In this document: piece after piece, positions 4,938-50,642 of the stretch
Layout: each line of letters opens with the position of its first letter
Numbering within the stretch: position 1 is the stretch's first letter
Origin: Bilabrum cf. latius
Taxonomy: Eukaryota
Assembly: GCA_965178125.1 (NCBI GenBank)
Contig: OZ237742.1
Span: forward strand, 868,001-932,000
Length of the DNA: 64,000 nucleotides
Reading direction: 5' to 3'
Made by a program: the position numbers and the translations under genes
Notes under the pieces: generated by a model
Told to the model about the DNA's origin: nothing
The model's input: only the letters and a program-made list of their open reading frames with translations
Databases searched by the model: none

Positions 4938-6131
4938 ATGCGGATCGGCATCAACACTCTAGCCCGACACGCCGGTCGACGGATGGCTCAAGCAATCAAG
5001 GGCAGGACAGCCAGCGGCATGATGACGATGCCTCGCCAGCTCTGCAAGCGGTCCATCGCCGGATCGGCCAGAGCTCTCCATACCATTGACACACCCCAGC
5101 ATGACCCGCACACCGAGCCACATCCAGACTCGCAAGACGCCCAAAGCCCGGTCGTCGACCTCCCAAGCCCAGGCAGCCAGGACCACGTGATGCAGGCGGC
5201 CAGCCAGGCCCTGGGCTCCCTGCAAGAGGCATCAGCCAGCGCCAGCGAGGCTGTGGCACGCATGGATGCATTCGTCGCCGCCGCCGAGACAGCCGCGCCC
5301 GCCCATCAGGCGCTGGCGGCGGCCGAGGAGGCGGTGCGGGCGTCGATGAAATGCATGGAGCTGGACGGGAAGGCGAGCATGGCGGTTGATCCAGGTGCGG
5401 CCAGCTCTGTGGGCCAGTATGTGGATGCGCTGGGCCCGGCGGAGGATGCGCTGAGGCAGGTGCGTGCGTCGGCAGAGAAGGCGGGCGCTGCTGCGGATGC
5501 GATGCTTCGTCACATGGAGGGTCTGGGCTTGGAGGCGAGCCGGGCGGCGGGGGAGGAGGCCGGCAGGGGGGTGCTGCCTTGGGAAGATGGGGATGATAAG
5601 GAAACGGAAGAGGTAGTGGAACAAATCAATTCAGCAATCGACCATGTATTGAAGCTCAAATGCGAGCAGCGAGGGTACGCGTACGGACTTGGGGCCTCAA
5701 GCGAGGAAGATGCCGAAGAAATTGGGTCTGAGATTGGCGATGAGCTGTCAAGCGCAGACATAGACGAAACATCATGTGAGGTTGGAGAAGAGCTGGGAGA
5801 GAAGGAGGGCGCCAAGCTGGGATGGGAGGCCGGGTTCAGGGTCGGAGGGTACGTGGGTGGCGAGATCGGCAGGCGGGCGGGCGCAAAGGCTGGCGCTGAG
5901 CATGGCAGTGAAGTAGCATACGAAGTCGGTGACAGTCTACGCTACGATGAGAACAAGCATTACATGGGAATTGGAAAGTGGTCCGCTGTTGAAGGTTGGC
6001 AGGACAAGCAGGGCAAGGACAGGGCGTGGCTGGCGCAGCTGTGCAAGGACAAGCCGTGGCTGGACTACGAAGAGATTGTGGAGTATTGGGATGAGTAGGA
6101 GGCGGATAAAAATCAGTCCAATGAGACGTAA
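4938..6131 (+). CDS. Tandem-array glycine-zipper protein, copy C (~397 aa); TAG at 6096 read as Q; ends at TAA
   Basis: TAG 6096 aligns with CAG in the other copies. The frame continues EADKNQSNET to TAA 6129-6131. Confidence 0.8.
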
Positions 6132-6279: not shown

Positions 6280-7482
6280 TCATATGGCACCGCCCAGCAT
6301 GGTTTCTACAACAAGGAACAACACGGCGGCGTTCGGCACGACTCTGATGAGGTGAGCTGGCATGCCCCCGTAGAGACCAGCCATCCCCTCCTCCCTCGCG
6401 ACTCGGACCAGGCAGTGCGCCACCCCGCGGTACCTCGCCTTGCTCCCAGACTCCCTCTGTTCCCTCATTCTAGTGCGGATCACTTCCTGGGGATAAACCG
6501 AAGCCGCGGCCACCAGCTTGGCCCCCGCCCCGAGCACAACTGCCTCAAGCCCACCGAATCGGTGCGCGGCGCGCGCCTGGGCTGGGGTCATGCCCTTCGG
6601 TGAAAGAGAAGAATATCCAGCTGTAGTGGTGCTGGCAGTGGCAAGGCCACCCTCGGTCATGGACACGTCTGGGTACTTGACGTGCAGGTAGCCCGCCTTG
6701 AGCTGCTGGTACAGAGCGAACTGAATCATGGATTCCGCAGCCCCGAGATACGACGCCGTTAGGCCTCTATAGAATCCAGTTATACCTTCCTCTTTGTAAA
6801 TTGACTTGAACGCGTGCCACAAGCCAGTGTAGTTAGTTCGTTTAGCCGCGGTGGACAGCCATCTTCGCCGCAGTACTGCTAGAGGGCCGACACCATCACC
6901 GCGTATCCCCTATCGCCACGTTGAAACAGTTAAATGCTGAGAAGCACGCAATTGCGATGGTATCTGGGATTCTACTGCGCTTGAGCGGCACAGTCTGCCT
7001 GTAGCAGTGCTGAACGAGCGTTTGCTGTTGCCGCCCGCTTTACTCCATTTGGCTACGCCAAGGCTTTCTGCATCCTGCTAAAGCTATAATCGCGTCTTGA
7101 CAACCCAGATAGGAGACGTAGCTGTTGCTGCAGCAAAACTTCCGATGCACGCAGCCAATGCGTGCTGTGTTGTGCCAATGATGCCAACTGATGCGAGTGC
7201 TTGCTTGGTTTTGTTGTATGCGTAGAACTAGCAGGCCCGAGCAGGGCCTACTCCAATGATAGAAGCGCCAACTCCTCGAAAGAGGCCTATTGGCCCCTCT
7301 TGCTTGACGATCTATCGCAAGATTCGGTCAACGCGCATGTTCCTTACTTCTGCAGTCACTCCAGCGGATTGCTGCCTCGTCTTGACTATCTCCAGCCAGT
7401 TAGTGGATATTGCTGCAGCTGTTCCACCAATTAGGCCGGCAAAGAAGTGGTCCATGTCGGATGGCTTCTTGGAGGAGGCCAT
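6280..7482 (-). CDS. Mitochondrial carrier, Rim2/SLC25A33/36 (pyrimidine nucleotide carrier)-like, ~400 aa; 5 TAG=Q
   Basis: Three carrier repeats in one frame: TNWLEIVKTRQQ, SPIWVVKTRL*L*, YPQEVIRTRMRE, plus EG..GLFRG/GFYRG/GLYGG motifs. TAGs at 7312, 7228, 7084, 7078, 6910; TGA at 6280. Confidence 0.92.
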
Positions 7483-7617: not shown

Positions 7618-10600
7618 TCACATGCCTGGTGGGGCGCTGCTGGCAGCTGCGGACGCAGGTTTCGCCACGGGCACCTTGTCGTCCCCAGCTGCAGCAGCCC
7701 CACCACCTGCACTTGCTGATGCTGCCGGCCGTCCATCACTGTCCCGTCCCTTCAACTTTACTCCCTTATCCTCCACCTTACTTTCTACGTCTGGTCTCCC
7801 CGCTGCCTCCACCAGCCCAAATGCTCTCTTATTGTTGGCCTCGAGTTGGGCGAGCGGGACCCCCATCTCGATCCCTTCGAACCGAGCGACTGCTCGGTAC
7901 AAAGGGAGCACCAACGCGGTCGCAAATCCGGAGGAACTCCTAGGCTTGGGCACCGGGCCCTTTCTGTCATTCATGGGCCCGATGGGCAGCTCCCTCTCCT
8001 TCTCCTAGTCCCCCTGCAGCCAGAACTCCTGGGTCACCAGGTCCGTCCAACGGGTGTTGAGTGTCCAGTCCCTCGCCGGGTTGGAGATGTCAAAGGCGTG
8101 CAGGATGGCACCCATGAAAAGCGACTCGTCCTTCGAACCGAACTCAACGGCTAATTTTTGAGAGACCCCCTCGCCATCGGCGCCCGCCCCAGGACCCCCA
8201 CCCTCGCTTTCCCCTGCCTCCACTTCTGCTTCGATTCGATCCAGTGCGTCCTCCAGCGCGCCAACCATCTGGAAGTGCCCCGCGTTATCCGTGTGCAGAA
8301 CCATAGAGGTGATCAGCTTGCGGCACTGCGCGTGCGTGGAGGGGTCGTGGCACGCGTCACCGAGCACGTCGGCATCGGAGCAGTCCCTCATGAGGAAGAA
8401 GAGCGTGGCGCAGTGCATGTTCTCCAAGGGACTCTGGTCGTTGTACCTCAGAGCAAGGTCGTGCTGAGTCGCAGTCAGGAAGGGGTTGTTCACCCCGAGG
8501 TGGCCAGCGTCGTGCGTGGCTGCGGCCAGCACCATGCACAACGAGGACCGCGGGTTGATGTGTTCCCTCAGCTTGCCCCCGCACAGCCCAAATAGCACAC
8601 CCATGGTCACATCGGCAGCATGCAACGCGTTGTGGTAGGGATTGGCCCTAGAGTAGCGGCTCGCGATCTCGCGGCCGAGGTTCCGGGCCGTGGTCGGCTT
8701 GATCCCGAACTTGCCGGCACCAGCCACCTCCATGAGCCCGCCGTAGCATGCAGCGACCAACGTCTCGTGCCCCACGCTCCTCCCCTTGGATCGGCCACCC
8801 GCCAGTTCCTCCAGCGACCAAGACATGAATCGCATGCCCAGCTCATCGTCTTCCTCCCCGCACCACCCAGACGACGCCACGGCGTGCCCGGACGAGGCCA
8901 GCCGGTGCCCCATGGATTCCAGTCGCTCGATCGTCTCTTTGCTCCTTTGGCCCGGGCCATGCAAGCAAGACTGGTCCGGGACGTACGTCTCCTTCACCCT
9001 GTTCCACATCATCTCCGCAGCGCTCTCGTCGGATGCTGACAGCCCGTGCATCCGCAGGATTACCCGGTTGGCCTCAAATATGTCAAACCCAAGCCAGTTG
9101 TTCCATCCGGGGCTCAGCACCTCCTTCTCCTGCTGCGCGATGGGCAGTTCGTACTGCATCGCAGCATCCCGAAGGGCGGGCATGGCCATACTCTCAGTGT
9201 GGAATATGATGCCTTCCGCGTGGACGCGCACGGCAGTCGCGGAGGAGCGTCGCCTGTCAGACACGCTCGTAGTGGAGGAAGCCGACCCGCGCGCCGCTCT
9301 GCCGGTGGACGAGCTCCTGCCCATGGCTGCCTTGAGCCTTCGTTTCGTACCTGCGATGCCTTTCTGGTAATCCTTATCACCACCAGCAGCAGCAGTAGCA
9401 GCGGCATCGTCGTTGCCACCGGCGGTACCTTGGTCACCGGACTTGTTCTCTAGCCCCGGCGGCTTGCCTCCGCCGAGCATGCTGCCCATCCGCATCACCT
9501 TGCCCACCAACTTGCCAACTGCCCGGAACTTTTCCTTTCCCGACAGCCTCACGCCGTACAATACGCCCTTGGATTGCTGCGTGGAAGTCGTCTGCTGCTC
9601 GAGAAAGGAGCGGGTGCGGCTGTCGATAGCAAAGGGCATCGAGGCTATCTCCATGTCGAGCGACGATCTCTTCCTGTGGATGCGGGCCTCCGATAGGCTA
9701 TCGCGCCTCGTTCTCGGCGTTGCAACTTCGGAGGGAGCTTCCACGAGCGGCTGGGCAAAGTTGTAAGGTGTAGTGCCTGCAAGCGGTCCGGCGCTGTGGA
9801 ACGAGGAAGTCTTGGAGTAGGCGCGGCCCCCTGAGGAATCGATATACTCTGCCGCCAGGACGTTTACTAGTGCGGCGAGGAGAGCGACGTCTTCTCCCGT
9901 GAAGGAGAGAGCGCTGCTACTGCTGTTACCGGCTGCACTTTCGCTGCCGCCTTCTCGTGCGACATTGGGCGCTCGACTCTTGCGCATGCCTGTGCGCCCA
10001 TCCTGTGGGGACTGTCCAGTCTATAGACCATCTCCCTGCGAAGCCGCGGAAGAAGCAGCGGCCTGGTCGCCTGTGCTTGCCTCCTTCCTCTCTGGAATAT
10101 CCGCGCTCCTGGATGGTGGATGGGCGCGCACGGCATCCGATCGGCGGTATGACACGCCAAAATCGGACGTTCGTCGCGGTCCGCGCGGCCTTGTTTGCTT
10201 CCCTGGCCCAAACAGACTGTGCTACAGCACTGTGCTTGCGGACTGCTGGCGGGTCATGACGGACTTCGATCCGCCAGTACCCGCGCCTGCGCCTGCACAC
10301 CCGAGCGTTTCTTGCTCCTGCTGCATGCGCAGCCGGAGCAGCCGCCTAGGCGCGGCGCCTCCACTTTTAGGTTCCGTAATTGCACCCCTGGTGCTCCGTG
10401 GCGTCGTGCGACCGCTTTCACCACCCCCTAGAGAATGGGACGCAGGCACACTGGGGGTCGGTGTGGGCAAGCCAAGCGAGGGCACGCTCACCCGCCTTCC
10501 CTGCGCCGAGACGATCTCGATCATACCACCGAGCCCGGGCCTGCTGAAAGTAGACCTCGCATCCAACGAGCTGCCCCGGCTTGTTCCCTGGCCGGAGTCC

Positions 10601-11970
10601 TGCAGCAGCCGTCCCATCGGGATCGGCGGAGGCGCCAGACCCACAGGAGGCCCTGCCTCCGCCGACGTCGCACCTCCTCTGTTCCCTGGATCGTTGTTCC
10701 CTGAGGCCGGCACTGGAGCTGGCATCTAGCCCGGAGATACGTTGCCATCGAACACTGCTGCCGGTGAGGGTGTGTCCGTCCCTCTAGTATCCACGGACTA
10801 TCCATCCTACCCCGTGCCCATTTCTGCGACCAAACCGCACAAGTCGGCTAACCGTGCGACCACCCTGGCCAGAGCGGCAATGGCCGCGGGCCCTGCGGAC
10901 GGAGGCGCCCCCGCCAGGCCCCTAGAGTCCGCGCTAGCAGCTGCTGACCCGCCCCCTGACCCTCTTGCTCCGCGCCTGACCCCCAGTCCGGCTCCGGCTC
11001 CACCCTACCCCTGCAGTGCCAGACCATCCACGTCCACATCCACGTGAGTCGCACCGGCGTAATCCTCCGAGGCTGCTTCAGACCCGGGGGAGGAACTCTT
11101 GGGTCGCAATACTGCCTGCTACCCACCGCTCGCGGGCGGTTGCCGGGGTGACGGTGAGGATGAGGAGGGGGCTGCTGCTGCATGTCGTACCCCTCCTCCT
11201 CCTAGTGGGGTTTGCGCCGGGGATATCTATCCTTTGCCGGAGTGTCCTTGCAGCTGGACGCCAAGGGAGGCACACGAAGCGTCGTTAGAATTCAATGTAG
11301 TTGCATCGGCATCAAAAGCAAACGCAATGCCTTTCTTGTGTCTGGCGTCGTCGCTGCTATCGGTTGCGTTCGATCGCCTGCTGCCAGGTGTGCTCGCCGG
11401 CTCGTGCTCGTCCACTTCGCCGATCTCACCAAGACTCGCTCGCGTTGCAGAATGCTGTCCAATTGATGAAATTCGAGAGCGAGTCTAGTTTCGCGATGTA
11501 GCCAGCGGCACAGGAGGCTGCGCCGGGCTAGAGCAGTCCGCTTCGATCTAGCCCTCCCCTCGCATCAGCGTGGCTAGTCGTTCCAAGCGTCCATGCGCGG
11601 TTGCCGGACTTGGAGACACCGCTTCAAGAATCGAGGCAGAGCTTGCAGACCGCTTCAACTGACCAGATTCTTGTGGTCCTGCCAAAGTAAGCAAGCCGAC
11701 CTGTGCTTCGCGGGCGGCCTGCGAAGCCGCATCATCGTCAGAAAGCCCCTAGCGAATAAGTTCACTGGCACGAAGTGCAGCTGCTACAGCCTGAAGCACA
11801 TCATCGCCGATTGCGTCCCTCAACTGGGCCTCTTGCACCTGAACGCCTAGATGTGTCCCAAGCATGCTGGGCGAAGTGGCTCGCTTGGTTTCCTTCATAT
11901 GGCGCAATACTGCGCTGATTCGCCGAGCAAGCTATCTATCCCAGTCATCGCCTTCAGCAGCGCTTGCCAT
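7618..11970 (-). CDS. Class I cyclic-nucleotide phosphodiesterase with a long low-complexity N-terminus, ~1450 aa; 13 TAG=Q
   Basis: PDEase motifs YHNALHAADV, HDAGHLGVNN, SPLENMHC, HAFDISNP, EFWLQGD*EKERELPIGPMNDR. Single frame from ATG 11970 (in-frame TGA upstream at 11995) to TGA 7618, with only TAG interruptions. Confidence 0.9.
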
Positions 11971-12299
11971 AATTGGATCTATGGTCTGGTTGTTTCAACG
12001 AATAACAGTGTCTGGTAAACGCCATCACTAGAAAACCACACGTTACCACGACGTCGCACTTGCATGGTCGCACGCATACACAGCTTAGATTCATATCAGA
12101 CGTAGTTCTGGGCAGTACCAGTTTCTTCCATACTTTTACCGACACGGCCACGACCAGATCGTATGGGCCCTCATACCTCCGAGGGCCACGGCTCACATTG
12201 TCTGCCTGATGGCCGCAGCCAGAATGTGGCAACGTATTGGCCAGCTTGCCAGTGGTCCACGGCTACCACTCTAGTTTGCGATTGAAGGCTCGCCAACAC

Positions 12300-22800: not shown

Positions 22801-24567
22801 CGCTCCGCCGCCATGCGTTCCAGGCGACCTGGTTCCGCAAGCGGAGGCGCCGCACGCATGGATTCTTCCGGCTCCGGGACCCAGGACGCCAACCGCGAGT
22901 TTGCTGAGGCGATGCGGCGGGCCGTGCCTGCCTCGCCGGGCCAGCAGCAGCCCATGACGCCAGATGGGTCCAGGTCCAGCGCCAGGATCGCAGCCAAGCG
23001 ATCGGGAGGTGGCAAGCACTCGGACTCTGGGACCCGACGGGGCAGCACCGACCTCAGGAGCATACTGCCCGGCATGGGCAAGGAGGAGGAATAGGAAGGC
23101 GAGGACGACGTGCCCAAAGTCACTAGGAGCGCGCCCGCTTCTGCCTCGAAATGGGGCAACGGCGGCCACCGGGGCGGCGAGCAAGGTGCAATGCACGATG
23201 ATGCGCAGGAGCAGCCCGCCGGCCGTGCCCGCGCCGGGTCACTCAGCGGAAGGAAGCGCAACCCGCGCGGAGAGATCCGCGGTGACGTCAGCGGGCTTTC
23301 ACCGAGCTTGGTGGGGCCCGATCGCAAGGTCCTGCGGAGGAAGCGTCCCGGCGGCACGATAGACAAGGGGACTCACATACACACCGCCCGCACGCGTGCA
23401 ATCGAGGAGTCCAAGTCGAGGCTGCACGGTGGGGTCGGCGGCGGCAGAGGGGCGCTGGATACCACTAGTGCTGCCGCCGCGACCCACCTGCTCCCGCCGG
23501 GCGTGGCCGGGGTCAGCGGGGAGCCCGAGGAGAACAGCCAGCCCAGCCCGGCACTGGAGCAGGTGCTCGAGGCCGGCCGCTAGCTAGAAAATCTGATGCA
23601 GCAGGCCATGCAAGGCGGTGGTGGTGGGGCTGGCTTCCCGCCGTCTGGAACAGGCGGCTCCAGCAACCGTCGTGGCGGAGCAGACCGGCAGCAGCGCCGG
23701 CAGCAGCAGCAGGGCGATGGCGGGGACGAGGACGAGGACGAGGATGACTTGAACGTGCTCCCAAGCGCTGGGATCGGCGTGGCCACCGAGGCGGAGGAGG
23801 AAGCCAGGTACCACCAGTACGACGAGGACAGGACGCGGAAGGGCGCATCGGGTGCGGGGCAGCGAGGCCAGCGGCGCGGTGGCGTGCGGTTGAGGCCTGC
23901 CTCAGTGCCGCAGAGGTACTCGTCGGATTTCTCCATCGGTGACAGGCTTGCCTCGGGCTCCATGAACAGCGATGTGCTGCTGGACGGCGAGATTGGAGAC
24001 CTATCTGCGAGCTTCACCCACCTGTCCGTTGACTCCAAGGACGACGGCAGCGGCGGCGGTGGCATGGTTATTCCAGGCGGGGCCGGCTTGGAGGTTGTGG
24101 GCAGGCCACTCAAAGTGCAGCACGAGGATGCGGGTTAGGGTGATAGGGGGATTTCCGGCAGCAGCCGTTCCAGGCGACGCGGTGCAGGTGCAGAAGGAGG
24201 CAGCGCGGGCCGAAGGTCGGGCAAAGTACTAGAGCGGAAGGTCATCAGCGACATGGGTCCTCCTGGGCGTGCCCACGTCGTTGAGCAGGTGTCGTGGCGC
24301 GCGGGAGGGTCCACGCACACGGGAGAAGTCGTTAGTGAGGCGAGATCATTCGAGGACAAGCACGTGCTGGAAGGGCTCTTTCTGCAGGACCCCGAGGAGC
24401 AGAGAGCGGGCGCGGGTCTCGCAGGGATGGCACCTGCCGCTGCTACGGCTGACAGTGACGCGGATGGGACGGGCGGGCCGCACGGCGATTCAGGTGAGAT
24501 GAAGCGTGGCGGTTTACTGGGCATGAACATCAACGACTCGCTGGATAGCGGAGGTGCGTTCGTGTGA
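19808..24567 (+). CDS. Three-repeat MYB (R1R2R3) transcription factor, join(19808..20085,20305..20423,20570..24567), ~1464 aa; 8 TAG=Q
   Basis: R1 GRWTAAEDSALK*GVAKLGAKNWKAIS*NFLSG*RSDVQCLHRWQKVL; R2 LVKGPWTPEED...GKQTRERWFNHL; R3 KAPFTEEED...[25 protein letters not shown]. Two GT-AG introns; TGA at 24565-24567. Confidence 0.92.
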
Positions 24568-24712
24568 TGGCAATGAGTTTCGCGCCGTGTTGCTGAGCTA
24601 CATGCATGTTTTCGTGTTGATCCATGGCGAAGACGAAGCAATGTACCCATGTGTGGATACTTGTCCGCGGCACCCACTCACCTACGGAGAGTCGCCTGAA
24701 GCCCTTCACGCG

Positions 24713-27700
24713 TCACCCCTCCAGCTCGGCTCTGAGCAGGCTCTCCTTGTCGATCTCAGCCCCGCGAGCACCCGTCGAGCTGCCTGCCCCGCTGGAGGGC
24801 CCGTCCGAGAGGAGTGCCCTCTTGAGCCTCTGCTTGTCCTGGGCGACCTCGTCCATCCGCTGCTCGATCGTCTGCGCCATGCTCAGGCGGAACACGTGCA
24901 CTTGCTTGGTCTGCCCGATCCGGTGGCACCTGTCCTCGGCCTGCGCGTCGTTGTGGGGGTTCCAGTCCAGGTCGTTGATGATCAGGCAGCTTGCAGCCGT
25001 CAGGTTGAGACCCACTCCGCCCGCCTTGGTGCTGAGAAGGAAGACGCTGACCGTGTCGTCTACGGTGAAGCGGTCGATCAGCATCTGCCGGTCGCTTCCG
25101 TTGGTGGATCCGTCCAGCCGCAAGTGGCCCACCTTCATGCCGTCCAGCACGTCCTCATAGATCGAGAGGATCGACGTGAACTGGGAGAACACGAGCAGCT
25201 TTTCCTTGCGCTTGCCCAGCGTCTTGACGCAGCGGCGGAGGAAGCCCGCCTTGCAGGACTGCAGCAGGTACGGCTTGCTCATCTTGGATATGTCACGCAG
25301 CAAAGGCTCCGACTCGCAGATCTGGTGGAGGTCGTAGTCCTGCGAGAAACAGGCGCATTGATGAGGCAAGAGAGTACGGGCGAAGTCGAAGCGAAGAAAC
25401 ATTGTGAAATGGGCTCGGCTTGTTGGCACAGCAAGCTTCGCATTCGTCTCACGCTGTAGCCCAGCACTTCCTCTGCGATGTTGGCCAGGCGCTTGTCGCC
25501 GCGCGCCCACACCAGCAGCTCCTTGGATGTGGAAGGCGCCGGCAGAGTCTCTGAGACTCGCCTGTACCTCGGGGCCAGCTCCGGAATCATGTCGTACGGT
25601 ACTGAGAGCGAAGCAGCCGTTGGCATGAGGGGGCATCGAGGGTGGCTGTGGGAGCAACGGGGGTCAGCGACGCTCGCTGTTGGGCAGCTGGCAGGCGGAT
25701 CTCCCGCCGATGTGCGAGCCCGCTTTGCAGGGGCTTCCCCTCTCTCTTGGGAGGTGGATGCAGGTGCTTTCGCGTCGGAATCACCGTCGTGCATGGCCAT
25801 GGCCACCATCGCCTCCTGCTTCTTGAACATCGCGTCTTCGTTCATGGAGCCCGCTGCAGCCGATGCAGCCGACCTGCGGGGCCGATGGCCACCCTGCTGC
25901 TCCTATAGCACCGTTGAGGCTGCCGCGCTTGAGGACGAAGAGGAAGACGAGGCTACGCTCGAGGCAGGCTGGACACCATCCGCTACGATTCCCGTACCTG
26001 ACGTCCCTGCGCCGGAGCGGAAAGCCGCCTCGTTGTTGATGGCTCGCTGCACTTCGATCCAGTTTGAGAGCGCTGGTACGGCCTCGAACGGGTTGCGGTC
26101 AGCCACCGCCTTGCGAGCAGCCGCAGTTTTCATGGACTGTGCCAGCTCCTGGTGCCTGATGATGCGAGCGATCAGCAGGCAGGTCCAGTCAGGGAACAGC
26201 GCCCTGGCCAGCATGGGATGGTTAGCGATCTTGCGGAGATTCATGACCACGCTCATGCCTGCAGGTCCAAAGTTAGATCCCCCGCGATCCATGCCAAGGC
26301 CGCACGGCGACCTGAAATCGCGCAGTGCGACACCTCCAGAATAGCCGAACGGCTTGTCTGGCTTCTCAACCAGCCCGGGGATGGGAGCTGTGACCCCTGC
26401 GATGAACATGGGGTCCTGAAGAAGCTCTCTCTTGGCATAGCCGTCCGACTGCGCTGCTGCGATGTGGCAGTCCATGCCTTTTTCAGTGAGCATCTTGGTG
26501 CGGGCTGATAGGACCCTTGTGATGGCGTACATCCTCTGCTGGACGGGAATGCCGGGCAGCACCATGGACTTGAGGATCTTGGAGGGGAGCTGCGAGGCAG
26601 TGGAGATCGGCTGGGATGGGGAGCAGCAAGTCGTTCGTTGCGCGCAATGGAGGCATACAATGCGGTGATGCCAGTTCGACTATCAAGCCCAGACTTGCAT
26701 GCCTGAGGCCGGAATCATGCAATAGTACAATAGGCACGTGTGATTTGCCTCACCGTCGAGAGCACCATCTTCTTTGTCCGCCTGAGTATGAACGGCGAGA
26801 GCGTCTTGCGGATGCTGTCCACCACGGAAACCGCGTCGTCGTCTCCAATCGACGATGGCAGCTGCGCTTGCAGCGATGCAGCGGCGCCCGCGACGACGGG
26901 CGTCTGGTTAGCGAGCGCTGCAGCTGCCTCCCTCTTCTTCCTGGCAGCGAGCTCCAGCACGAATGCCTCGTTGAGCAGAGCCCACTCGCTGGCAGCCTGC
27001 TTGGCCTGCCCAGCCACCCCTGCATCGTCATCATCCCCGTCGCCTCTGTTGGACTGAAACATGGCACCCGAGGACAGCCTCACGAGATCTGCCAGGGTGA
27101 ACTGCAGGAGAGTGAGCACCTCCACCAGGTTGTTCTAGATCGGCGTGCCTGTGAGCAGCAGCCGCTGCCTAGAGTGCACCCCGGCGATGCGGCGATAGCG
27201 GCGCGTGGCCGCGTTCTTGAGACCGTGTGCCTCGTCAAGGACCATGTAGTCGAACTTTCCCACTTTGGCCTGGAGTGCGCGGAAGCTGCCGTCATCCTCG
27301 AGCTGAGAGTATGTGGTCAGGATGACGTCGGGAAGGTGTCCCCTACTGAGAGAAGAGATGAACTTCTGCTTGGTCTGCCGACTGCCCCTGTAGGTCTGCA
27401 GCAGCAGTGAAGGTGCCCACCTATCGAACTCTTTCTGCCAGTTGCCCAGCGTGCTCGTCGGCACGATGACCAGGTGAGTGCCAGAGGAGGCCATGTCCTC
27501 GTCGACGTGCTAGAACACGGAAATCGCACTGCCCACGGCAGATTGCATGGACGGGAAAATAGATTTGCGCACCATGGCGGCCTGCTCCTCCCTGCCATGA
27601 GGCGGGGATTGCTCCAGTTCGTCGGCGATGGCTGCGATCCTCCGCGCCTCTTCAAGCCCGGCCGGGCGCCAGAAATCGCGCCGCCCATCCATGGAAGGAT

Positions 27701-28385
27701 CTCGAAAGAAAGGGGGAGGTGGTTGATGATCGAACATGGGTGGGCTCTGTGAGCCCGATTCGCCTGCAGCAGCGCCAGTGGCGCTGCTCCTGCCTCTCTG
27801 AGCAGTTGCTTTGCCTGGAGGCGATGGAGCAAAACGCATCTTGATAGAGGCATGCTTTACGGCTGCCAGCAGGGCAATAGTCTAGCAAGTCTTTCCTAAC
27901 CCCTGTTCGTCGGCGAGAATCCCATTGATGTGCATTGCTCTCGAGTGGTACAGCCATTTCAAACCTGTCACCTGGTGCTCCCTCAGCGACAGTCTCTCTT
28001 CTCCCCCGAAAGAATCTGGCAAGTCTGGCATCCGAAGTCTGTCTCTTGATGATTTAATTCGGCTCGAAATAACATCTGCTGTTTCAAGAATTGCTCTGGC
28101 GTCCTTTCTGGCAAGCGCAAGCCTGCGCTGCCGCTCCGCGTCTTCGTCGTCCGAGTCGGAGCTGGACGCCGAATCCTCGAACTCTTGCTCTTCTTCTTCT
28201 TCTTTTATTTGCTTTGAAACTTTCTTTCGCGGAGCCTTGGACTTTGACCTCACCTTGATCACCCTATCTCCAGTGCTCGTCCATCCAGCGTCTGCTAGCG
28301 ATTTGGCACCTGCTTTCTCAAGGTTCGATCCACTTTTCTAGACCTCTTGCTTCTCAGCGGTAGAATCGCGCACAATAGCTTCCAT
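24713..28385 (-). CDS. SNF2-family chromatin-remodelling ATPase, SMARCAD1/Fun30-like; complement(join(24713..25339,25453..26589,26754..28385)); 5 TAG=Q; start codon tentative
   Basis: NGILADEQGLGKTC*TIA, LVIVPTSTLGNW, LDEAHGLKN, LLTGTPI*NNL, PFILRRTK, MNLRKIANHP, LVFSQFT, LRLDGST, FLLSTKAGGVGLNL, DWNPHNDAQAEDRCHRIGQ. Confidence 0.92.
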
Positions 28386-28547
28386 TGAGATGCAGTTATG
28401 ATGATTTATTTGACTGAGCGGGTCAAACTACGACAAAATACTGTGCGAGCAGCTGCGCGATTCTCGGCAAGGCGGTTGCAACCAGCCAAATCCACGGACG
28501 GGCCAAAATCAAGATTCGTTCGTTCGTTCGCAGGCAGATTCCCATGC

Positions 28548-35724: not shown

Positions 35725-38700
35725 ATGGCGCAAAGCACCCTGTTTGATGCAGGAGAAACGTCCCAAGCCGCCCCATCCGGGTTTCTGTCTTTTGGTAGTG
35801 AAGGCAGTTCTATGAGGCATGGATCTCGAGTTGGTCTGGATAAACCAGCGTCAGTTGGTTCATCTTTTGCATTGGTGCCACGACGAACCCCACTTGGAGC
35901 TACTGACAGGAACGCTAACCCTGCCGCAGCGACGGTTCAAGTTGGGAGCACCCCTGGTACGTTTGGGCAATCTTTCGCAGCAGACGGTAAGACTCATCAA
36001 GATCAGTTTGTAACTGTAATATGTATCGTTCCTCTGCCCGACCCGCACTGCCGAAAGCGTTCTCGTACATGATGCGCAGGAGCTGAATCTCTCCTCGGAT
36101 CGGACAGCCGCTTGCGACAAAGCCTCCCTGGAGTCTCTCCCGTCGGAGGCAGCAATTCTGACTAGAGCAAGGGAATCATGGGCATAAGCACCGTGCAACC
36201 GTAGCGAGCACACGCATCGACCCGCCAGCACGGGCCTGCGCGGGCTTCCCCAGGAGCCACATCGGGCCGCGAGAGAGGCGCTAGCAGCGGAGGCACTGGC
36301 AGCGGCACTCGCAGCGAAGGAGTCGCGAGCACCGATACCGGGAGGCAGCGACGACCCGTGCGTCGCTCTCTGGGCACCTTCTCTGGCGCATCTGAAAGCC
36401 CGCTGCAGGCAGCTGACCTGGCAGCAGCTGCTGCCTCCTCCTTCGTCTCCTCGTCCACGCCCTCCCCCGACTAGCCCAATGCAGGGGCAGACACACCAAC
36501 CGCCGCGACAGCCAGTGTCCGAAATCGCCAAAGCATGGCTGCTGGATCATCATCCCAGTCAAAGCGCAAAGAGGGGCACAGTTAGCATAAGCAGCCCCTG
36601 CCCCACCACGCCCCGCTGCAGACCCCGCAGCCGTCGCACAAGGGCTCGTCGAAGCGGGAGCAGTCCCTGTGCCGTTCTGGCATTAGCATTGACTTGGAGC
36701 AGGCGCACAGGCCCTCTGCAAAGGTAGTGGCTAAGTTTAGCTCCAGGCTGGTGGACGACCTCAAGGACTCCAGGATGGGCACGCCGGTGGCTCCGGATGG
36801 GTCTGAATAGGAGACGCCAACGGTTGTTGGAGCCGCCACCTCTCCCATGCCGGCAGCTGCGAGACCCAGCCAGTCGCCAATGAATGGTGGTATGGATTCA
36901 TCACCGTCACCATCGTCTGTGGGTGAAAGCCGCCACGGCAGGCTTGCAGGTGATGGTGATGCTGGGGACAGCCTGGGGCGGTCTGCCCTGCGAGCCAGCC
37001 AGCTGCAGTCGGTGCTTGCAAGCAGCGGCCGCGACCATGAGCACGAAGGGCAAAAGCAAGACGTCTCCGGCGATCAGTAGCTTTTCGAGGGGACATGGAG
37101 TAGTGACCAGGACAATGAGGAGGAGGAGGACGAGGACTAGAGCACAAGCGTAGGGAGCTGGAAGAACGTAGGACAGTCTCTGGCTGCTGCAGGACTGAGT
37201 GCAGAGGCAGACGCAGCCGATGTGCTAGAGCAAGGCGACTTCAGCGGGAGCCTCGGGCCGGGCACCGGCTCTGCAAGCGCTGGAGTGCGCGCGCGAGAAG
37301 GGTTTGGCAGCGCGGGCAGCAGCAGGGCACAGACCCCGCAGCCGCCCCAGAACGAGTACCTCTCCACCGTGCTGGAGGCCACTGAGGACGGGACACAGGG
37401 AACGAATGGATCGGTATCCAGGGCACACATGGGCGGGGGTGATAGCACAGCGGCAGGCTTCGAGGGAGAAGCCTCCCGCCAGGGCCGTTCCACCCGTCTC
37501 CCGCTCGGTCCTACGGAGCGCAGCGGCATGGGCTTGGACCGTTCAGAGGGGCTCCTTCGTGTAGGGCATCACTTGTCTGCTGTCGGATCCCTGCCAGGCT
37601 AGCTGCCAGAGAGCAATCAACGTCTTGCTGGCTAGTACCGTGACGAAGGTGCAGGCTTCGATCAGCAGCAGCAGCAGGAGCACCTTGAGCAACAGCACAT
37701 GGCAGAAGAGAGCGAAAGCGAGAGCGATGGTCAAGATCCCGAGTCGGACAGCGGCAGTGAATCGAGTGGACTTGATGCTGGGCTCGATGCCATCATCCGA
37801 CAATCCAACGCGTCTTCCTCCGCTGCAGACGCAGACGCAGATGCCGATGCCGTGTCCGGTGGCGGTGGCATTCAGGACCACGATGGTACTCGTGAGGCTG
37901 AGAGCACTGGCGAGCGTGAGGAGGACAGCCACGGCAACTGGGCAACTAGCGGAGATACGAGTGGCACACACGGCGGCGTGGACAACGCGGCAAAGACCGG
38001 CCACATGGTTGCATCCGATAGCGATGGTCAGCAAGCGGACAGCCCTCGTATATCGGAAGCACAGCCACCGGTCCCTTCACAGAACCAGGTAGAGGGCTCG
38101 CCGTCTGCCAGGAGTAAAGCTCACAGTCTTGCGCAGGAGCTCGCGCAGCCCGCCACACAGTTCGCGAGCGACCGACTCAACCCAAGCGAGGATGCCACCG
38201 CCAGGGAGAGAGCCAGGGCAGCCCATGCCGCTGCCAAGAAGGAGCAGGCTGCGAGAGAACGGGCGGCGGCAAGGGCGCAGCGTCGCGGACATGCAGTGTC
38301 GCGGGGAAGAGGAGCATCCAGAGCTGGGGTGCGTGGTCGCGGTCGCGGCCGTGGCCGTGGCCGTGGCCGTGGCAGAGCAGGGGTAATGCAGCCGAATCGG
38401 CCAGCAGTGCTCGTCCCCACCACTCCCGGAACAGAAAGATCACTCCGTCAGTTTGAAGCGGACGTGCGCAGGATGGGAGTCACGTTCTCACCGGAGGTGT
38501 CCAAGCAAGCATTGGGCGTGCCTGTAACAGTCTCTGAGGCACCAGCAAACCAAGAGCAAGCATGCAACAGAATTGCGAATGAAGAGGCACCCAGCACACC
38601 AGAGTCCTCTGCCAGATCACGGAGCAGACGGGCGGCTGCTGCTGGAGAGCATTTGAACTCGATTGGACCCGCTTCCTTGCCCACGGGAGGCAACGATGAA

Positions 38701-41700
38701 TCAATTGGCCAGTCGACCCTGCCGCCATCGCTACCGGACGCGACCCGAAGCATGATCCCGGCCGATACCCCGCGCACTGCCGCCACCAACGCACGAGCGC
38801 TCCGGGATGCTGCCCGTAGCAGGCCGAGCACAGCGAATGGATCAGGGAGCAACCGGTCCATGCAAAACTAGGAGCACAAGCGCTCCTCAAGCGGGACCGC
38901 GAGAAGAAGCCTCGAGGCAGATCCCAGGCCCGAGCAACGGCAGGGTGGTGATGCCATGGAGCATGCAGCTGCTGGCCCAAGCAAGCGTGCGGTCCCCGAT
39001 GCAGCCGACTAGAACGGTCAAGGCGATCTGGCACAGCAGCCGAATCCATCCCAGAGCGATTCGTGGCAGTTCGCTCCCGCGGATCCTCAGGCCCTGTTCG
39101 AGGACTCCTTGATGGATTTTGGTCACAGAGCCAGCGCGATCGTGGCGGCAGCGAAGAGCCCGGAGCCGCCGCACCAGGCGGGCATGAGGGGCGTTCAGCT
39201 ATCCCTGGCTTCGTCCTCGGTCCGTAAAACAGGTCATGGGAATGGTCACGGCGCAGCAACGAAAGAAAGGGCTCAAGCATCGGCGCCGCAAGAGTTGCCG
39301 AAGGCCTTGTCCGCAACCAGCCCAGCGAACGGGCCGAACGAACAAGCAGCCGATGGCAGCACCCAGGTAGATGACGACGAAGACGAGGATGAATTCGTCT
39401 CTGGTGAGGCTGCCGCCAGGCGCATGGAAGACGAGGAGCGCAAGCGGGAGCAGGAGCGGGAGACGAAGGAGCAGGAGCTCGAGGAGGAGCTCATCATCAC
39501 CAAGGCAGCGCTGGCCAGGGCGGAAGCGAGGGCGGCCAAGGCGGAGGGCTCCTTCTCTGGAGCTGACGCTGGCAGCGGTACCGCTGCCTCGTGCACGCCA
39601 TCGGGGGTGTCGTGGGCCTTCGGGCCCGACGTCGCTCCAGCGCCAGGCACTGGCACAGGAAACACGACCGCGGCCTTGGAGTCTGCCGCGCGATCCCTCG
39701 ACCGATCCAACGGTGGACAAGAGTTTCCTAGGGAGAGGATGAATGTACCAGGTCGCACGCCCAGCATGACACCCCTGTTTGCCGCCCACAGTGCGCCCCT
39801 CGGTCGCATCTCGGGCACCAATACGGGCAATGGAACGCCTGCCACTGCGCCTCGATTCGGCCAAGATGGGCTGCGGAGCCCTTCTGGACTCGATGCGCGG
39901 GACGGTATGGAGCCTCTTGCAAGGCGATCATTGGACGCTGGGACGCGTGCTCAGCCACCTGCCACATTTAGTATGAGCAGCTCTGCAGGCAGCCAGACGG
40001 GCAGTGGGACAGGTGCGTACGAGAGCGCGAGGCAGCACTGCGGCACATCTGACCCCGACCGGTGCGACACGGTGGAAACTATCGAAGAGCGCCCGACAGC
40101 GTCTACTGTTGCAGCTGCAAGCACGAGCACTATGTCATCCACATCCGACTAGGCCAGCGAGGTAGGACACCGCGCGATTCCCGCACACGGTCGCTCTCGG
40201 CTCGACGGGCCTTAGGTGTTGACGGTGCCGGCCCGACGCGAAGGTCATTGCAGCCAATCCACCGATGAATCCGGGCTATCTCAGGACGACAAGCATCGGC
40301 CACGAACTGCCAGCTAGGGAGCTTCTGCCCTATGTCCACCCCCGAGATTCATCCGCAAGGCGAGATTGGAACAAACGGGAGCCACAGACAAGAAATTGGG
40401 CGCCTCTGTCACTTGCATTGACCAACGCGACATGGGGCACGCCCACACAGCTTCAAGTGCTGGTAAGGAGGCACACTTTGGTGGGTCCAGCACCGTAGAG
40501 GTTGCCGACAGTCCCACGACTTCGACATAGCCGGAAACGCAACCGCCACAACTGGGCCAGCCCCGGCCCCGGGCCCGGGTGCGAGATACGCACGGATCCG
40601 GCGATACCACCAAGCCTCCGGCGGTAGCCAAGTCTGGTTCACCGGAAGTCGCTGGGCCCGTTGCAGCTGCAGCGTCCACGGCACCTCTGCTTGGCAGGCC
40701 TGCGACAGTGATGTCGGAAGAGGCCAGCAAGGCGGCTGCATCTGGAGGTAGACCTGTGGCGCGCAGTGGTTCCATACTACAGCAGCAGCAGCAGCAGCAG
40801 CAGGTACGGCAACAGTCCCCTCGCATTCGGCTGCTGCTGCCAAAGAAGCTTCAGCGATCAGGCGCCAAGCTTGCCCTGGCTGGCGGCGGCGGTGCCCAGG
40901 CCCGCAAGGTCGTGCCTCTGCGGCTGTCGACTGATGGGAAACCCGGGACGCCTCCGATGCCTTTCTCCCTACAGGCGGTGCTTGGTGTTGAGGGCCTCGC
41001 TGCAGGAGGCGTGTCGAGCCTCCAGCTCGCAGTGATGCAGGGTGCCGTTGCGACCGGAGTAGCGCTGCAGGTAAGCCCATCTGTTCTGGAGTCGTAGTTC
41101 CCTGCTGGATCTGGCAGTGGCACCGCGTCCTGGACCGAGGTTGCGCTGGTTCTGGCGGGCAAGCTAGATTCTGGCGCCGTGGGGGGCATCCAAGTGAGCT
41201 CGAAGGGCGGCTGCATCCATGCATTTGTTTCGGTCACGGCCACGTTCAAGGGATCAACCGTTGGACAGACATTCTGTGTTCCGCTGGTTGTCGATCTTGG
41301 CACTGGATGCGCAGCTGGTGCCGACTCTGGAGGTGCATCAAGCAGGACAATCAAGAGCGGTGGCGTGGCGCGGTCGATTGGCATCCAGGGCAAGCGGGGC
41401 ACTGGGACGAACGCAACAGCCCCAGCGGCGCGCCAGGCACCGCGACCTCCAACCGAGCACCTGCACGCAGTTCCAAGCTCCGCAGTCTCCATCCAGACAG
41501 CGTCAGCGACCGCTGTCACTCAACCTGCGGCATCCTCTTGTGGTATGACCGAGCCGCAACCTACCCCTGCGGTAAGCATCGCACCTCCTGCAGGCCAGCA
41601 GGTGGAGCAGCCGCCCGCAGAGGGCAAGCCGGAGCGCCCGCGCAGGCCGAGGCCGAACCGCGTGGGGCCTCCAGGATCGGGACCCGAGGCCTCCGGTGTG

Positions 41701-44700
41701 AACCACACACAGTACTAGGCTCGACCACCAGTCCCTGCAGCAAGCCGTGAGGTTGTCGGCCCTGCGGCTGCCAGTATGCCGGGTGCGGGCCGGTGCACGC
41801 AGCACAGCCCACACAGGGTGTCGGCAACCCGAAATGGTCGCGCGCCGCAGCCGCAGAATCAGCAGGCAAGCAAGCCTTATGGTGCCGTGCGTGCTGATCT
41901 TGCACCCGGTGTGTCATCGGCCACGGTTGCGGCTCGCAGGACCGCCCCTGCCAGAGAGGAGCATTCGCAAGCGAACCATAGGCCCGGTCCTTTCAAACGA
42001 CACGCAGTTGATAGCGGCACACAGTGCGATGTCCAAGCAGCAGGGACTGTCACACGCACACGCAAATCAGTCGGCGAATCAGCAGCAGCGACAAGTAGTG
42101 CGAGCTACAAGAGCTATAGGGACGAAGGCACTCAGATGACGCCTGCGAAGCCTAGCAAGCCCAGTGGCCAGATGGGCCGTACCAATCGTGCAGACGCAGG
42201 CACCGTGAGCGAAGTTTAGAGCCGGGCTGTCGGCAAGGAAGAGGAACCTAGTGCGATGATTGCTCTCCCGCACACGTCCAGCAACACCGCAGGCGGTGTC
42301 GCCGCAAAATCGAGCAGAGTGTCTGGGTCACCGGTTGCTCGTCATGCCCGGGTGCTCCGCGCCCATGATGACACGGTGGACTCCACGCCAGCCTCGCCCG
42401 CGCAGCCGGTGCTTAGTCGCTCCGGTAGGGAGGTTCTAGGTCAGAGCGTCAGCGTCCCAGATGACAAGCGGGTCGTTTCTTCTCCCGTTGATGCCGTTCG
42501 CGGGCTCCTTGGGAAGACATCGCAGGAGCATCCCGATCACACAGCTAGCGGGGACTCATTGCCTATTGCAGGATCTGGATCTGGATCTGGATCTGGAAAG
42601 CAGGCCAAGCCCGCCGTAAACGCTGCTCCGCTGGGAGTGGACGGACCTAGGCGAGTGTTGCCGCAGGATGACTCGTGTGATGCGGCAGAGGGCGAGTCCC
42701 TCATGTCACCAGTCACCAGGTTTGTGAACGGCATCGCCTCGGCTCTTGCAAAAAGACGAAATGCTTCTGTTGCGCCCCAGCACAAGCACGGCGACGCAAG
42801 CCAAGGGCAAGATCCTGACGAGGCCAACTCCATCTCATTCGAGAACACGAGCGCTGCAATGCAAGGGCAGCAGCAGTCCTCTCATGAAGAGACTGGCACT
42901 GATCGAGCTGAGGACGACAAGAGTCTGCAAGAGCCGCTGGAGGACATCCAAGACGACATTATCGATGAGAAGGACACGTCCAATGTCACTGGTGATGTCA
43001 CTGCTCCGCCTTCCGCGGAGAGGCCCAGCCAGTCCGTCGCCAAGAGCTTGGCCATCATCGTGGAGAGGGCGAGGAATGGGAGGGCCCGGCCATTGACCGA
43101 CTCAGAGGGCGAGCACAGCAGCATCCGCGAGGGGCACATCGATCAGCTCTCGCCCATTGCGCGCCACGCACCTACCCCTGGTGCTGTTGCTGCGTAGCGC
43201 AAGGAGCTCGTGGGCCTCCCGGCCGACCGAGTGATGGCGCGCGACCTCGAGCGCGAGATGGAGGGCGTGGGCTCCATCGAGCACGACCTCGAGGACGTCC
43301 GGAGCCGCAAAGGCACATCCAGCACGGACAGCCTGCCGCTCCCCAGGGAGCCCATCCGCGTGTCGAGTACTACCGGCGCCTGTAGCCAGCAGGCTGCAAA
43401 GCCTGTCGAGCAAGTAGCGGCAACTCCGCCATCTGCGGCATCAAGCCGACCCAGCTCTGCCCAGAGCGACGCACGGAGGGGAATCGCATCGGCCATGAAG
43501 CACGTGCAAGAGGCCAGAGATGCGCTCCATACCCAGCCGAGCAAGAAGGCCGCGCGTCACCACGCCGTACAGTCCTCAAGGCGGAGGCCAAGGCACGTGG
43601 TACCTGCTCTCAGGATTGATGCCGACAAGCAAGGCGGCAGAGGGCGCACTCCGGTCGAAGCAAGGATGCTGCACGGCGGGGCTGCTGGGGGACACCTGAG
43701 CGCTCTTGGCAGGCTGCAGACGCCGCCGTCACCCACCCGCCAGGGTAGGAAGAAAGCAACCGTTAGAGGTCATCGGACCGGGGCGAAATCCTCCAATCGA
43801 GGGAAGGATCTAGCCACAGCGGGCAAGGAGGGAGCTAGTAGAGTAGTGAGGTCTCCTGTGAGGTCGACGGTCGGCCGACAAAGTACTTTTACTGGTCAAT
43901 CATCGCCTGGGTCGTCGCATGACAGGCAGCAGAATGGACCGCAGGCACAGCAGCGACAGCAGCGCAGGCCCTCCCCTCTGCGGCGGTCTGTCGCTTCGAT
44001 CGCGCGAGTGTACGGCGGTAGCTCAGCAGCTGGCCGCCCAAGGTCCCAGGCGCGTCCGTCCGGCGCGCGCCCCCCGCTATCGCCGCGCCCCACAATGCAG
44101 CGCTCCTCGTCTCAGACTTCCCTGGCATCCAGATCCGTGGGATCCAGGTCAACCGTGTCAACGAAGCCATTGCGTGCGAGTCCCAAGTCCAAGTCGCTGG
44201 AGAGGAGCATGGCTAGGAACCGGTCCTCGTAGCTGTCCGGCAAGCGTGGCTCAGGTCAAGGCGCAAAGCGAAAGGGCACAGGCAAGAAGAGCAGCAGCAG
44301 CAGCAGGCGGAAAGGAACGAAGGGCAAGGCTAAGGGCAAGACTGCGTCTCGGGTGAAGACAAAGAAGTCTTCTGAGGAGTCATTGGTCACGGCTGGTAGT
44401 GCGGAGACCTTGGTCCCTTCGCCCAACGTCTCGAAGAAGGAGAGTGGCACAATTGCTGTCCACGAATGGGCTCCTGCACAGAGGTCTCTATCGCTTTCAA
44501 GGAAGCTGGAGGGCGAGCTGGACGCTGTCTCGAAGCGGGATGGGCAAGTACGAGACGGTGACGAGTCTGCGGATGGCGGACACCACAGCATCTCCCTGAA
44601 CATGAATGATGGCGCGAGCGAGCAAGGACCCGGATTTCATCAGCAACAGCACGTAAGTGAGTCAGCCGAGTCAGCCGAAGAGGGCAGTAGCGCGGATGAA

Positions 44701-45849
44701 GTGGCCGAGGTCAACAGGTTGGTGCGCTCCGCAGTGGACACAAGCTGGGCATCGGTCGCAGGCCACAGCGCCGCAGACATGCGTCGGAGCCATGATGCCG
44801 CCCATGCACCCGAGGGCAACCGGGAGCAGCCCGCAGCAGGCGACGGCCGGCCGCCTCGCCCAGATGCGAGGCAGACTCATGGTGGCCGACCACCGCTCGC
44901 GAATAAACTGCGAAGCAACTCGTAGGAAAGAATGAACGGCTCCCATCAGTCGGACGTCTCCGAGCCTTCCGGCTCGCATGGCGCGGGTCATTCCCAAGAG
45001 CAGCAGTCGCAGGACAGCAGCCGCAGCGTGGGCCAGATCTTGGCCGGGGTGGCAGAGAGCCCTGCGTCTCTGTGGGGAGCTGCAGATGCTTTCAGGAGCC
45101 CCGTGGAGAGGGCTCGTGCCGCAGCCGAGCGGCGCCGTGTAGACCAGCGATAGAAGGAGCCCACAGTACGCGTGCCTATGCATGAGTCAGCGGCTGGCCG
45201 GTAGGACAGCAACCGGTCCCACGCGTCGGCAGACTCCAGCAGCCTCCATGCCTCGAAGATATCTGCTCCACCGGCAGCACACGCGGGTATAGACAGAATG
45301 AGCACAGTGAGCAGCCAGCACCACACACTTGCAACGATGGATGACACCCTTGCTGAGGCCGCCTCAGTTAGGTCACAGGCCTCCAGGGTGCTGGGGTCCG
45401 CAATCAGGCAGCAAGCACACGGGCGCCCAGCGCAGGCGACTAGCCTGAGAAGGCTCGAGTTCCCGCAGGTGCCTGTAGGCACCAGCGCCTAGAAGCGCTT
45501 TAGGCTCAGGAACTCCAGCGGGCACTCGTTGATCGTGCGTGCTCGCATCGAGCCAGCTGCGGATGGCGAGCTGCGGCAGGTGCCAGGTGGCGCTGTGTCT
45601 GGGACCGGCAGCTTTGAGGTGGCTCAGCGCCATGCCGAAGTAGTGCTACCCCCGCACTCGTTCTGCCTGATCCCTGTCAGCTTCAACCCGGGGTCCGGAG
45701 GTGAAGGTGCTCTTGATGGTGGAGTTCAACGCAAGGTGGCAGCAGTGCTGCGGGTGTGGAGTGCTGCTGCAAGGCCAGAGGAGCAAGAGCTGGTAGCTCG
45801 CAAGGGTGTACGGCTGGGAGCTGTGGCTTTGCTTGTGGGGCGTTGGTGA
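35725..45849 (+). CDS. Giant low-complexity protein (~3343 aa) with a C-terminal ASH (ASPM/SPD-2/Hydin)-like domain; join(35725..35986,36080..45849); 24 TAG=Q
   Basis: Fourteen ORF-track fragments share one frame, and the gaps contain only TAG. A 93-nt GTAAG...GCAG intron removes the single TGA. The C-terminus LEFPQVPVGTSA*KRFRLRN...LPPHSFCLIPVSFNP is ASH-like. Confidence 0.8.

Positions 45850-50609: not shown

Positions 50610-50642
<33 letters not shown>

Follow-up and report, generated by a model that had tools for sequence, protein, structure and literature searches.

The stretch of DNA analysed here, the window, comprises 64,000 nucleotides of contig OZ237742.1 (positions 868,001 to 932,000, assembly GCA_965178125.1, labelled Bilabrum cf. 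latius) and has a guanine plus cytosine (GC) content of 60.3%. On its minus strand lies a predicted SNF2 ATPase gene of the Fun30/SMARCAD1 type that contains five in-frame TAG codons, two of which stand where the conserved glutamine (Gln, Q) residues of helicase motifs I and III are expected (Table 1). These two TAGs, at 27882 and 27135, had been pointed out in a sequence-only reading of the DNA, which placed them exactly, the two codons being both ends of the interval it gave. It had also described the other SNF2 motifs as intact, and motifs Ia, II (DEAH), IV, V and VI are all found, including LVFSQF, STKAGGVGLNLT and QAEDRCHRIGQ. With the standard or the bacterial code the frame of exon 1 splits into open reading frames (ORFs) of 151, 123, 124 and 139 amino acids. 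If TAG is given a residue, exon 1 yields a match to the Pfam family SNF2-rel_dom (PF00176) with an E value of 7.4e-49, and exon 3 matches Helicase_C (PF00271) with an E value of 3.2e-21; exon 2 has no Pfam match of its own.

Table 1. Features of the SNF2 gene and of other TAG-bearing genes in the window. Positions are those of the window; L001 is the related metagenome contig described in the text.
Feature	Position	Strand	Description
Fun30/SMARCAD1-type SNF2 ATPase gene	24713..28385	(-)	Predicted model: 3 exons, ~1131 codons (544 + 379 + 208), 5 in-frame TAGs, TGA stop 24715-24713
Exon 1	26754..28385	(-)	544 codons from ATG 28385; TAG at codons 16, 168, 292 and 417; GTGAGG donor at 26753
In-frame TAG, codon 16	28338..28340	(-)	N-terminus, non-conserved
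Motif I (Walker A), GLGKTC-Q	27882..27902	(-)	Gln codon is TAG, codon 168, 27884-27882; frame reads ILADEQGLGKTC-TAG-TIALL
Insertion of ~117 residues between motifs I and Ia	27510..27863	(-)	Without counterpart in Fft3 and SMARCAD1; the PDB alignments skip from query residue 176 to 300
In-frame TAG, codon 292	27510..27512	(-)	End of the lineage-specific insertion
Motif II, DEAH box	27225..27236	(-)	Located in the exon 1 translation
Motif III, TGTPI-Q-NN	27129..27152	(-)	Gln codon is TAG, codon 417, 27137-27135; frame reads LLLTGTPI-TAG-NNLVEV
Intron 1, predicted	26590..26753	(-)	GTGAGG...CAG, 164 nt; frame changes between conserved exons 1 and 2; same break in L001
Exon 2	25453..26589	(-)	379 codons; SNF2 linker/brace region and low-complexity insert; one TAG, 25905-25903
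Intron 2, predicted	25340..25452	(-)	GTGAGA...CAG, 113 nt; frame shift between conserved flanks
Exon 3	24716..25339	(-)	208 codons, no TAG; Helicase_C; motifs IV 25195-25178, V 25033-24998, VI 24943-24911
Cyclic-nucleotide phosphodiesterase (PDEase)	7621-11994	(-)	Pfam match, TAG-bearing
Calcium-dependent protein kinase (CDPK) with EF hands	49647-52313	(-)	Pfam match, TAG-bearing
Mitochondrial carrier	6283-7482	(-)	Mito_carr, E 1e-61; 5 TAGs
Further TAG-bearing Pfam matches			C-terminal RING protein, p25-alpha, Myb, two ankyrin proteins, SDE2-like, Usp

The relationship to SMARCAD1 and Fun30 proposed in the earlier reading agrees with the searches made here. Among solved structures the best relatives of exon 1 are human SMARCAD1 (9jao, 3e-35) and Fft3 of S. 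pombe (7xyf, 5.3e-35), with the ISWI and Snf2 structures coming next, within about 10 bits, in this search, which compares scores and is not a phylogeny, and the best long homologues of exon 3 carry the source names SMARCAD1 and plant CHROMATIN REMODELING 19. The gene shares with the Fun30/Fft3/ETL1/SMARCAD1/CHR19 subfamily its best solved-structure matches and all helicase motifs, but differs by the insertion between motifs I and Ia, by the long low-complexity insert in exon 2 and by an identity of at most 50% in the Helicase_C exon to anything named, all named members of the subfamily included. A CUE-type N-terminal domain was not found on exon 1, where Pfam at E <= 0.01 gave SNF2-rel_dom, ResIII and DEAD only. 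N-terminal CUE-type ubiquitin-binding motifs are typical of Fun30 and SMARCAD1 and are not universal in the subfamily, so their lack weighs little.

At the two motif sites the residue expected by homology is Gln. The columns were counted over the 146 non-fragment representatives among the 150 that an exhaustive phmmer search listed; the first four rows, fragments from near-identical relatives, were treated separately. At codon 168 (motif I) the 145 listed representatives that cover the column have Q in 137, M in 5, S in 2 and E in 1, and at codon 417 (motif III) the 146 covering ones have Q in 141 and E in 5; Leu, Tyr, Trp and Lys occur in neither column among these representatives. The PDB alignments likewise place both TAGs opposite Q in SMARCAD1 and Fft3, in the contexts GLGKT(I/C)Q and TGTP(V/L)QNN. 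Both columns are thus nearly invariant for Gln among the homologues, and the earlier proposal that the residue is Gln and not Leu, Tyr or Glu is supported; a related locus, described next, also has CAA at both codons.

A scan of metagenome contigs for related loci gave 22, of which 21 match unrelated SNF2-like genes over a mere 27 to 41 residues and were left unused. The remaining one, L001, is a contig of 5969 bp with 58% GC in which the SNF2 gene stands tail-to-tail with a Myb-type neighbour, as in the window, and it is a true orthologue. The identity is 48% over 432 amino acids to exon 2 and 78% over 215 amino acids to exon 3; within the SNF2 domains the proteins are conserved at 59–78% and all motifs are kept. 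Introns are found at the same two places as in the window gene, and a stop codon immediately upstream of the homologous exon 3 in L001 speaks for intron 2. For intron 1 there is an alternative acceptor, with which exon 2 would start at 26610. The SNF2 gene of L001 has about ten in-frame TAGs of its own, mostly at sites other than those of the window, and four of them are opposite CAG in the window.

Codon pairs between the window and L001 were counted in the four true coding-frame alignments only, 1782 aligned pairs in all. They include 24 pairs of TAG with a sense codon, and the partner is Gln in 8 of the 24, where 4.0% of all aligned residues are Gln (binomial P = 2.9e-6). When BLOSUM62 scores are summed over the partners, Q is best with 37, followed by R with 15 and E with 14. 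The ordinary Gln codons CAG and CAA are opposite Gln in only 60 of 144 cases in the same alignments, and opposite TAG in 8, so that TAG behaves like a further codon for Gln in a protein that evolves fast.

Closer relatives are found as four fragmentary ORFs from public assemblies (P0122, P0125, P0124 and P0272), which match exon 1 with 78–98% identity. P0124 and P0272 begin or align at the same Met region as the predicted start of exon 1. P0122 (98% identity) spans codon 417 with Q; P0125 (97% identity) has Q at codon 292 and ends exactly at a CAG of the window (Q340), and the ORFs of P0124 and P0272 have GLGKTC as their very last residues. TAG was evidently treated as a stop when these ORFs were predicted, and their ends imply that close strains would interchange TAG and CAR (CAA or CAG) in both directions.

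In L001 the region of the insertion between motifs I and Ia is likewise open in this frame and recognisably similar, and the ORF of P0125 spans it; the insertion was judged to be coding and not an intron, and its place in the folded protein would be the surface of ATPase lobe 1. An in-frame intron at residues 176–292 (27863-27510, GTAAAG...TAG, 351 nt), for which the TAG of codon 292 would serve as splice acceptor, was rejected for the same reasons, and because L001 has no matching donor.

The presence of in-frame TAGs is not confined to the SNF2 gene. With the standard code the longest stop-to-stop ORFs of the window are 691, 671 and 514 amino acids; with TAG as sense they become 3258, 1647, 1458, 1379 and 1256, and with TAA as sense they are unchanged at 691, 671 and 514. 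The lengthening that depends on TAG is not due to chance. The 16 ORFs of at least 500 amino acids (16,436 codons) contain 110 TAG, 493 CAG and 192 CAA codons, which gives UAG a share of about 14% of the Gln codons in the window, and the TAGs are spread over all tenths of the ORF length, the last included. One of the 16, at 24527-26419 (+), is antisense to the SNF2 gene and is probably not a gene. Pfam domains are found in at least ten TAG-bearing ORFs of the window (Table 1). In the CDPK the TAG in INH-TAG-NNIWW is opposite Q in 10 of the 10 closest relatives, which are environmental proteins with 50–71% identity. The sequence-only reading had treated one gene, and at that level it stands; its scope was too narrow, since the effect of TAG extends over the whole window and is also seen in the L001 lineage.

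The TAGs are present in the DNA, in frame and window-wide, and by homology they are equivalent to Gln. As the best explanation, with a probability of roughly 85%, we suggest that this is nuclear DNA of 60% GC from an intron-bearing eukaryote in which UAG means Gln, and UGA, in the majority of cases, and UAA terminate translation, which is the arrangement of NCBI table 15. The SNF2 gene would then be an intact and functional chromatin remodeller of the Fun30/SMARCAD1 type whose motif I and motif III Gln residues happen to use the UAG synonym, and the TAGs at these two sites would be the two most diagnostic cases of a window-wide change of code. By analogy with other such codes, a tRNA-Gln with the anticodon CUA would decode UAG specifically and leave UAA untouched, and an eRF1 with weakened recognition of the third-position G would be inefficient at UAG; passages in PMC5304391 are the basis for these two steps. 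On present evidence the change appears to be of a kind already known, table 15, and at least one further lineage, the divergent one of metagenome contig L001, appears to have it too.

That UAA and UAG both mean Gln (UAR to Gln, table 6), with UGA as the sole stop and TAA scarce inside genes because of the high GC content, is improbable. TAA is indeed scarce everywhere, with 352 observed on both strands against about 1004 expected from the base composition, where TAG is moderately under-represented (933 against 1522) and TGA occurs as expected (1615 against 1522). Each long ORF that closes with TAA is followed by a TGA within 13 to 198 codons, so the ORF structure alone permits reading on, and UAR to Gln is described in passages of PMC11687900 and PMC5304391 as the commonest reassignment of stops in eukaryotes. 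Against this, TAA is absent from the interior of nine gene-sized ORFs delimited with only TGA as stop (11,024 codons, 81 TAG), where the CAA:CAG ratio of 0.39 predicts about 32, and in the other real ORFs delimited in this way it is confined to the margins. TAA also ends 4 of the 16 long ORFs. A TAA terminates the RING protein six residues past its C-terminal RING domain, and the third of three tandem paralogues has its TAA within a few codons of the TGA ends of its sisters. Because of the empty gene interiors and the ends of these two proteins we conclude that in this window TAA is still a stop.

It is still less probable that UAG is ambiguous, meaning Gln inside genes and acting as a context-dependent terminator of some. 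Ambiguous stops have been proposed for Condylostoma, karyorelictids, Blastocrithidia (UAA) and Amoebophrya sp. ex Karlodinium veneficum (Kv), according to parts of PMC12005148 and PMC11687900, and the genes examined here number about 20. When TAG is read as sense, the terminators of the 16 long ORFs are TGA in 12, TAA in 4 and TAG in none, and all of the 15 gene models checked end in TGA or TAA. TAG furthermore occurs up to the last tenth of the ORFs, and the SNF2 genes of the window and of L001 both end with TGA, at corresponding positions.

A standard code combined with U-to-C editing of UAG to CAG in the mRNA is very improbable. TAG and CAG differ by one T/C exchange, and all data at the level of DNA would look alike under such editing and under a UAG that means Gln. 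The U-to-C editing that removes stops in the organelles of hornworts and ferns removes UAA and UGA too, while in the present genes TAG is the only stop in frame, and these genes are nuclear and intron-bearing. In the analogous case of Amoebophrya the stops are reported, in passages of PMC12005148, not to be edited out.

The letters themselves were compared with those of other sequencing runs. The SNF2 stretch is present almost letter for letter in contigs of runs from three studies. A piece from run X5 (26884-27945) covers both motif TAGs and a piece from run X6 (27089-27276) covers the second, at codon 417, each with zero differing letters, and the SNF2 TAGs are not assembly errors, because contigs from two other studies agree at the sites. 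The third run, X1, may be the source of the window itself. No splice joints were found over the SNF2 stretch in contigs of four runs. The idea that the SNF2 gene and the genes next to it are pseudogenes, their TAGs being due to inactivating mutation or to sequencing error, which would account for the standard code interrupting every large gene in the window, is effectively refuted by the identical letters in other studies, by the SNF2-domain conservation and intact motifs shared with L001, by the absence of frameshifts beyond the two GT-AG introns, and by the involvement of one stop codon of the three, with 110 TAGs and no in-frame TGA in the 16 long ORFs.

Some observations weigh against reading UAG as Gln, or lend it no help. 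A tRNA gene was not detected by ARAGORN in the 64-kb window or in L001, Rfam scans of both were also empty, and the window contains no eRF1 gene. In the comparison with L001 the partner of TAG is something other than Gln in 16 of the 24 pairs (R 4, S 3, G 3, and K, I, D, H, T and E 1 each). The column of codon 292 is variable, with A in 61 and Q in 3 of 88 sequences, and is opposite His (CAC) in L001, and the TAG of codon 16 is opposite Asp in P0124 and P0272; both codons lie in variable sequence and appear to say nothing about the residue. When the TAG columns of the phosphodiesterase and the CDPK were compared with 88 and 120 homologues, the phosphodiesterase column had R in 25, K in 23 and Q in 14 of 82, site 746 of the CDPK had Q in 5 of 86, and its site 817 had E in 27 and Q in 17 of 86, so that over these distant homologues Q does occur but is the commonest residue in none of the three columns. 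The phosphodiesterase site and the other CDPK site are variable polar columns, neither diagnostic nor supporting, and we treat them as neutral. The TAGs at the ORF ends of the close relatives are deduced from those ends and not read from DNA, the contigs of X6, which is possibly RNA and probably DNA, pass unspliced through both predicted introns, and the argument on TAA comes from one 64-kb window.

Reassignment of UAG alone to Gln (table 15) is described, in the parts of PMC11687900 and PMC5304391 that deal with it, for the fornicate Iotanema spirale and the ciliates Protocruzia tuzeti, Hartmannula sinica and Trochilia petrani. The window resembles these in having UAG as Gln with UAA and UGA as stops, and in the sign by which the code is recognised, in-frame UAG in columns where Gln is conserved, as it was there according to the same passages, but it differs in its 60% GC and in that UGA ends most of its long ORFs (12 of 16). 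In Hartmannula and Trochilia, the two phyllopharyngean ciliates, most C-terminal alignments end at UAA, as a passage in PMC11687900 has it. For Iotanema eRF1 was examined, whereas the code of the window is read from DNA alone.

The UAR-to-Gln codes of table 6 are found in many ciliates, in the green algae Dasycladales, Trentepohliales and Cladophorales, in hexamitid diplomonads, in Streblomastix and in Amoeboaphelidium protococcarum. They share with the window the reassignment of a stop to Gln and the retention of UGA as stop, and are unlike it in that the window has no in-frame TAA and uses TAA at the end of long ORFs. The genomes of Amoeboaphelidium have about 40% GC (PMC10608142, Table 1) compared to 60% in the window, and Amoeboaphelidium was therefore rejected as the source of the DNA; the ulvophytes were rejected as well, their codes being UAR to Gln or UAG to Ser. 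Amoebophrya sp. Kv is a protist with in-frame stops in essential genes, probably including UAG to Gln, but it is AT-rich with UAA, UAG and UGA all in frame (passages in PMC12005148), and it too was rejected as the source, since the window is GC-rich with TAG only. Among crAss-like and other gut phages using code 15, TAG is likewise read as Gln, there by suppressor tRNAs in a host with the standard code, to go by parts of PMC9523058; the window is a eukaryotic nuclear locus with introns of the spliceosomal type.

Among the other genes of the window (Table 1), the CDPK has a long N-terminus rich in Gly, Ala and Asp, and an insert of about 140 residues splits its kinase domain after the glycine loop. 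Two of the five TAGs of the mitochondrial carrier are in VVKTRL-TAG-L-TAG-QD, where the PDB alignment stopped short of the site; the carrier signature often has Q at this position. The three tandem gene copies are found at 1-6131 (+), with ORFs at 1024-2358, 2918-4252 and 3765-6131 and without a Pfam match. An exon-like upstream ORF, which is repeated, lies at 1-1023, and the C-terminal halves of the copies are acidic, rich in Gly and Ala and end in KDKPWLDYEEIVEYWDE, with TAGs in each copy. The region 36073-45849 (+) is a single low-complexity ORF of 3258 codons with 24 TAGs, and its sole Pfam signal is a sub-threshold match to Cep192 domain 4 near the C-terminus (E 5.9e-4, 20.4 bits with a cut-off of 35.5). 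On the side of the Myb gene a contig of 3459 nt from X6 (24600-24860) has a word depth of about 240, compared to about 5 for the SNF2 pieces; this could be due to RNA with a highly expressed Myb-type transcript, or to a repeat.

The DNA from 24600 to 28500 occurs in near-identical form in X1, X5 and X6, that is, under three organism labels in three studies, and small shares of it are found in protist and algae metagenome runs. The source of the DNA may be a cobiont, a parasite or a contaminant instead of the labelled species. The closest relatives of the CDPK are metagenome proteins, and the named ones have at most 37% identity over most of the query; for the phosphodiesterase the best named matches are 36% to a pedinophyte and 45% over 65% of the region to Cafeteria. 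Overall the best named similarities are 30–47% and come from a mixture of taxa (green algae, Chromera, apicomplexans, Cafeteria, chytrids and animals). From three protein searches there would provisionally be no close named relative; the searches were word-indexed and can miss relatives, and the proteins of the lineage itself are fragmented in the databases. A ciliate origin is unlikely because the DNA is long, contiguous and GC-rich. No report of UAG-to-Gln in a GC-rich non-ciliate eukaryote was found in a literature search that left out subscription-only papers. We propose, tentatively and with a little less than even confidence, that the DNA comes from an undescribed deep-branching lineage, represented elsewhere only by metagenome and assembly contigs and less than 50% identical to named organisms in three conserved proteins, which evolved UAG-only-to-Gln independently. 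This would be the first GC-rich case with UGA as main stop, and at least two divergent members, the organism of the window and L001, would have the code.

Gene callers that use the standard code shatter the genes of this organism, and in public protein collections the SNF2 protein is present only as fragments of 108 to 245 amino acids. Unless it is made with table 15, any annotation, BUSCO score or taxonomic binning of the genome will be incorrect. Nuclear codes with separate meanings of UAG and UAA are very rare and are listed, in passages of PMC11687900 and PMC5304391, only for Iotanema, Protocruzia, two phyllopharyngean ciliates, a rhizarian (Leu), Scotinosphaera (Ser) and one oligohymenophorean. 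Another case, with 60% GC and introns and with a second divergent lineage in metagenomes, would add an independent data point on the capture of UAG without UAA, and would show whether stops are reassigned only where GC is low. If the proposal of a separate lineage is true, it would represent a new, non-ciliate origin of table-15 coding, in a genome with a composition opposite to that of the AT-rich genomes for which the capture of stop codons is usually discussed.

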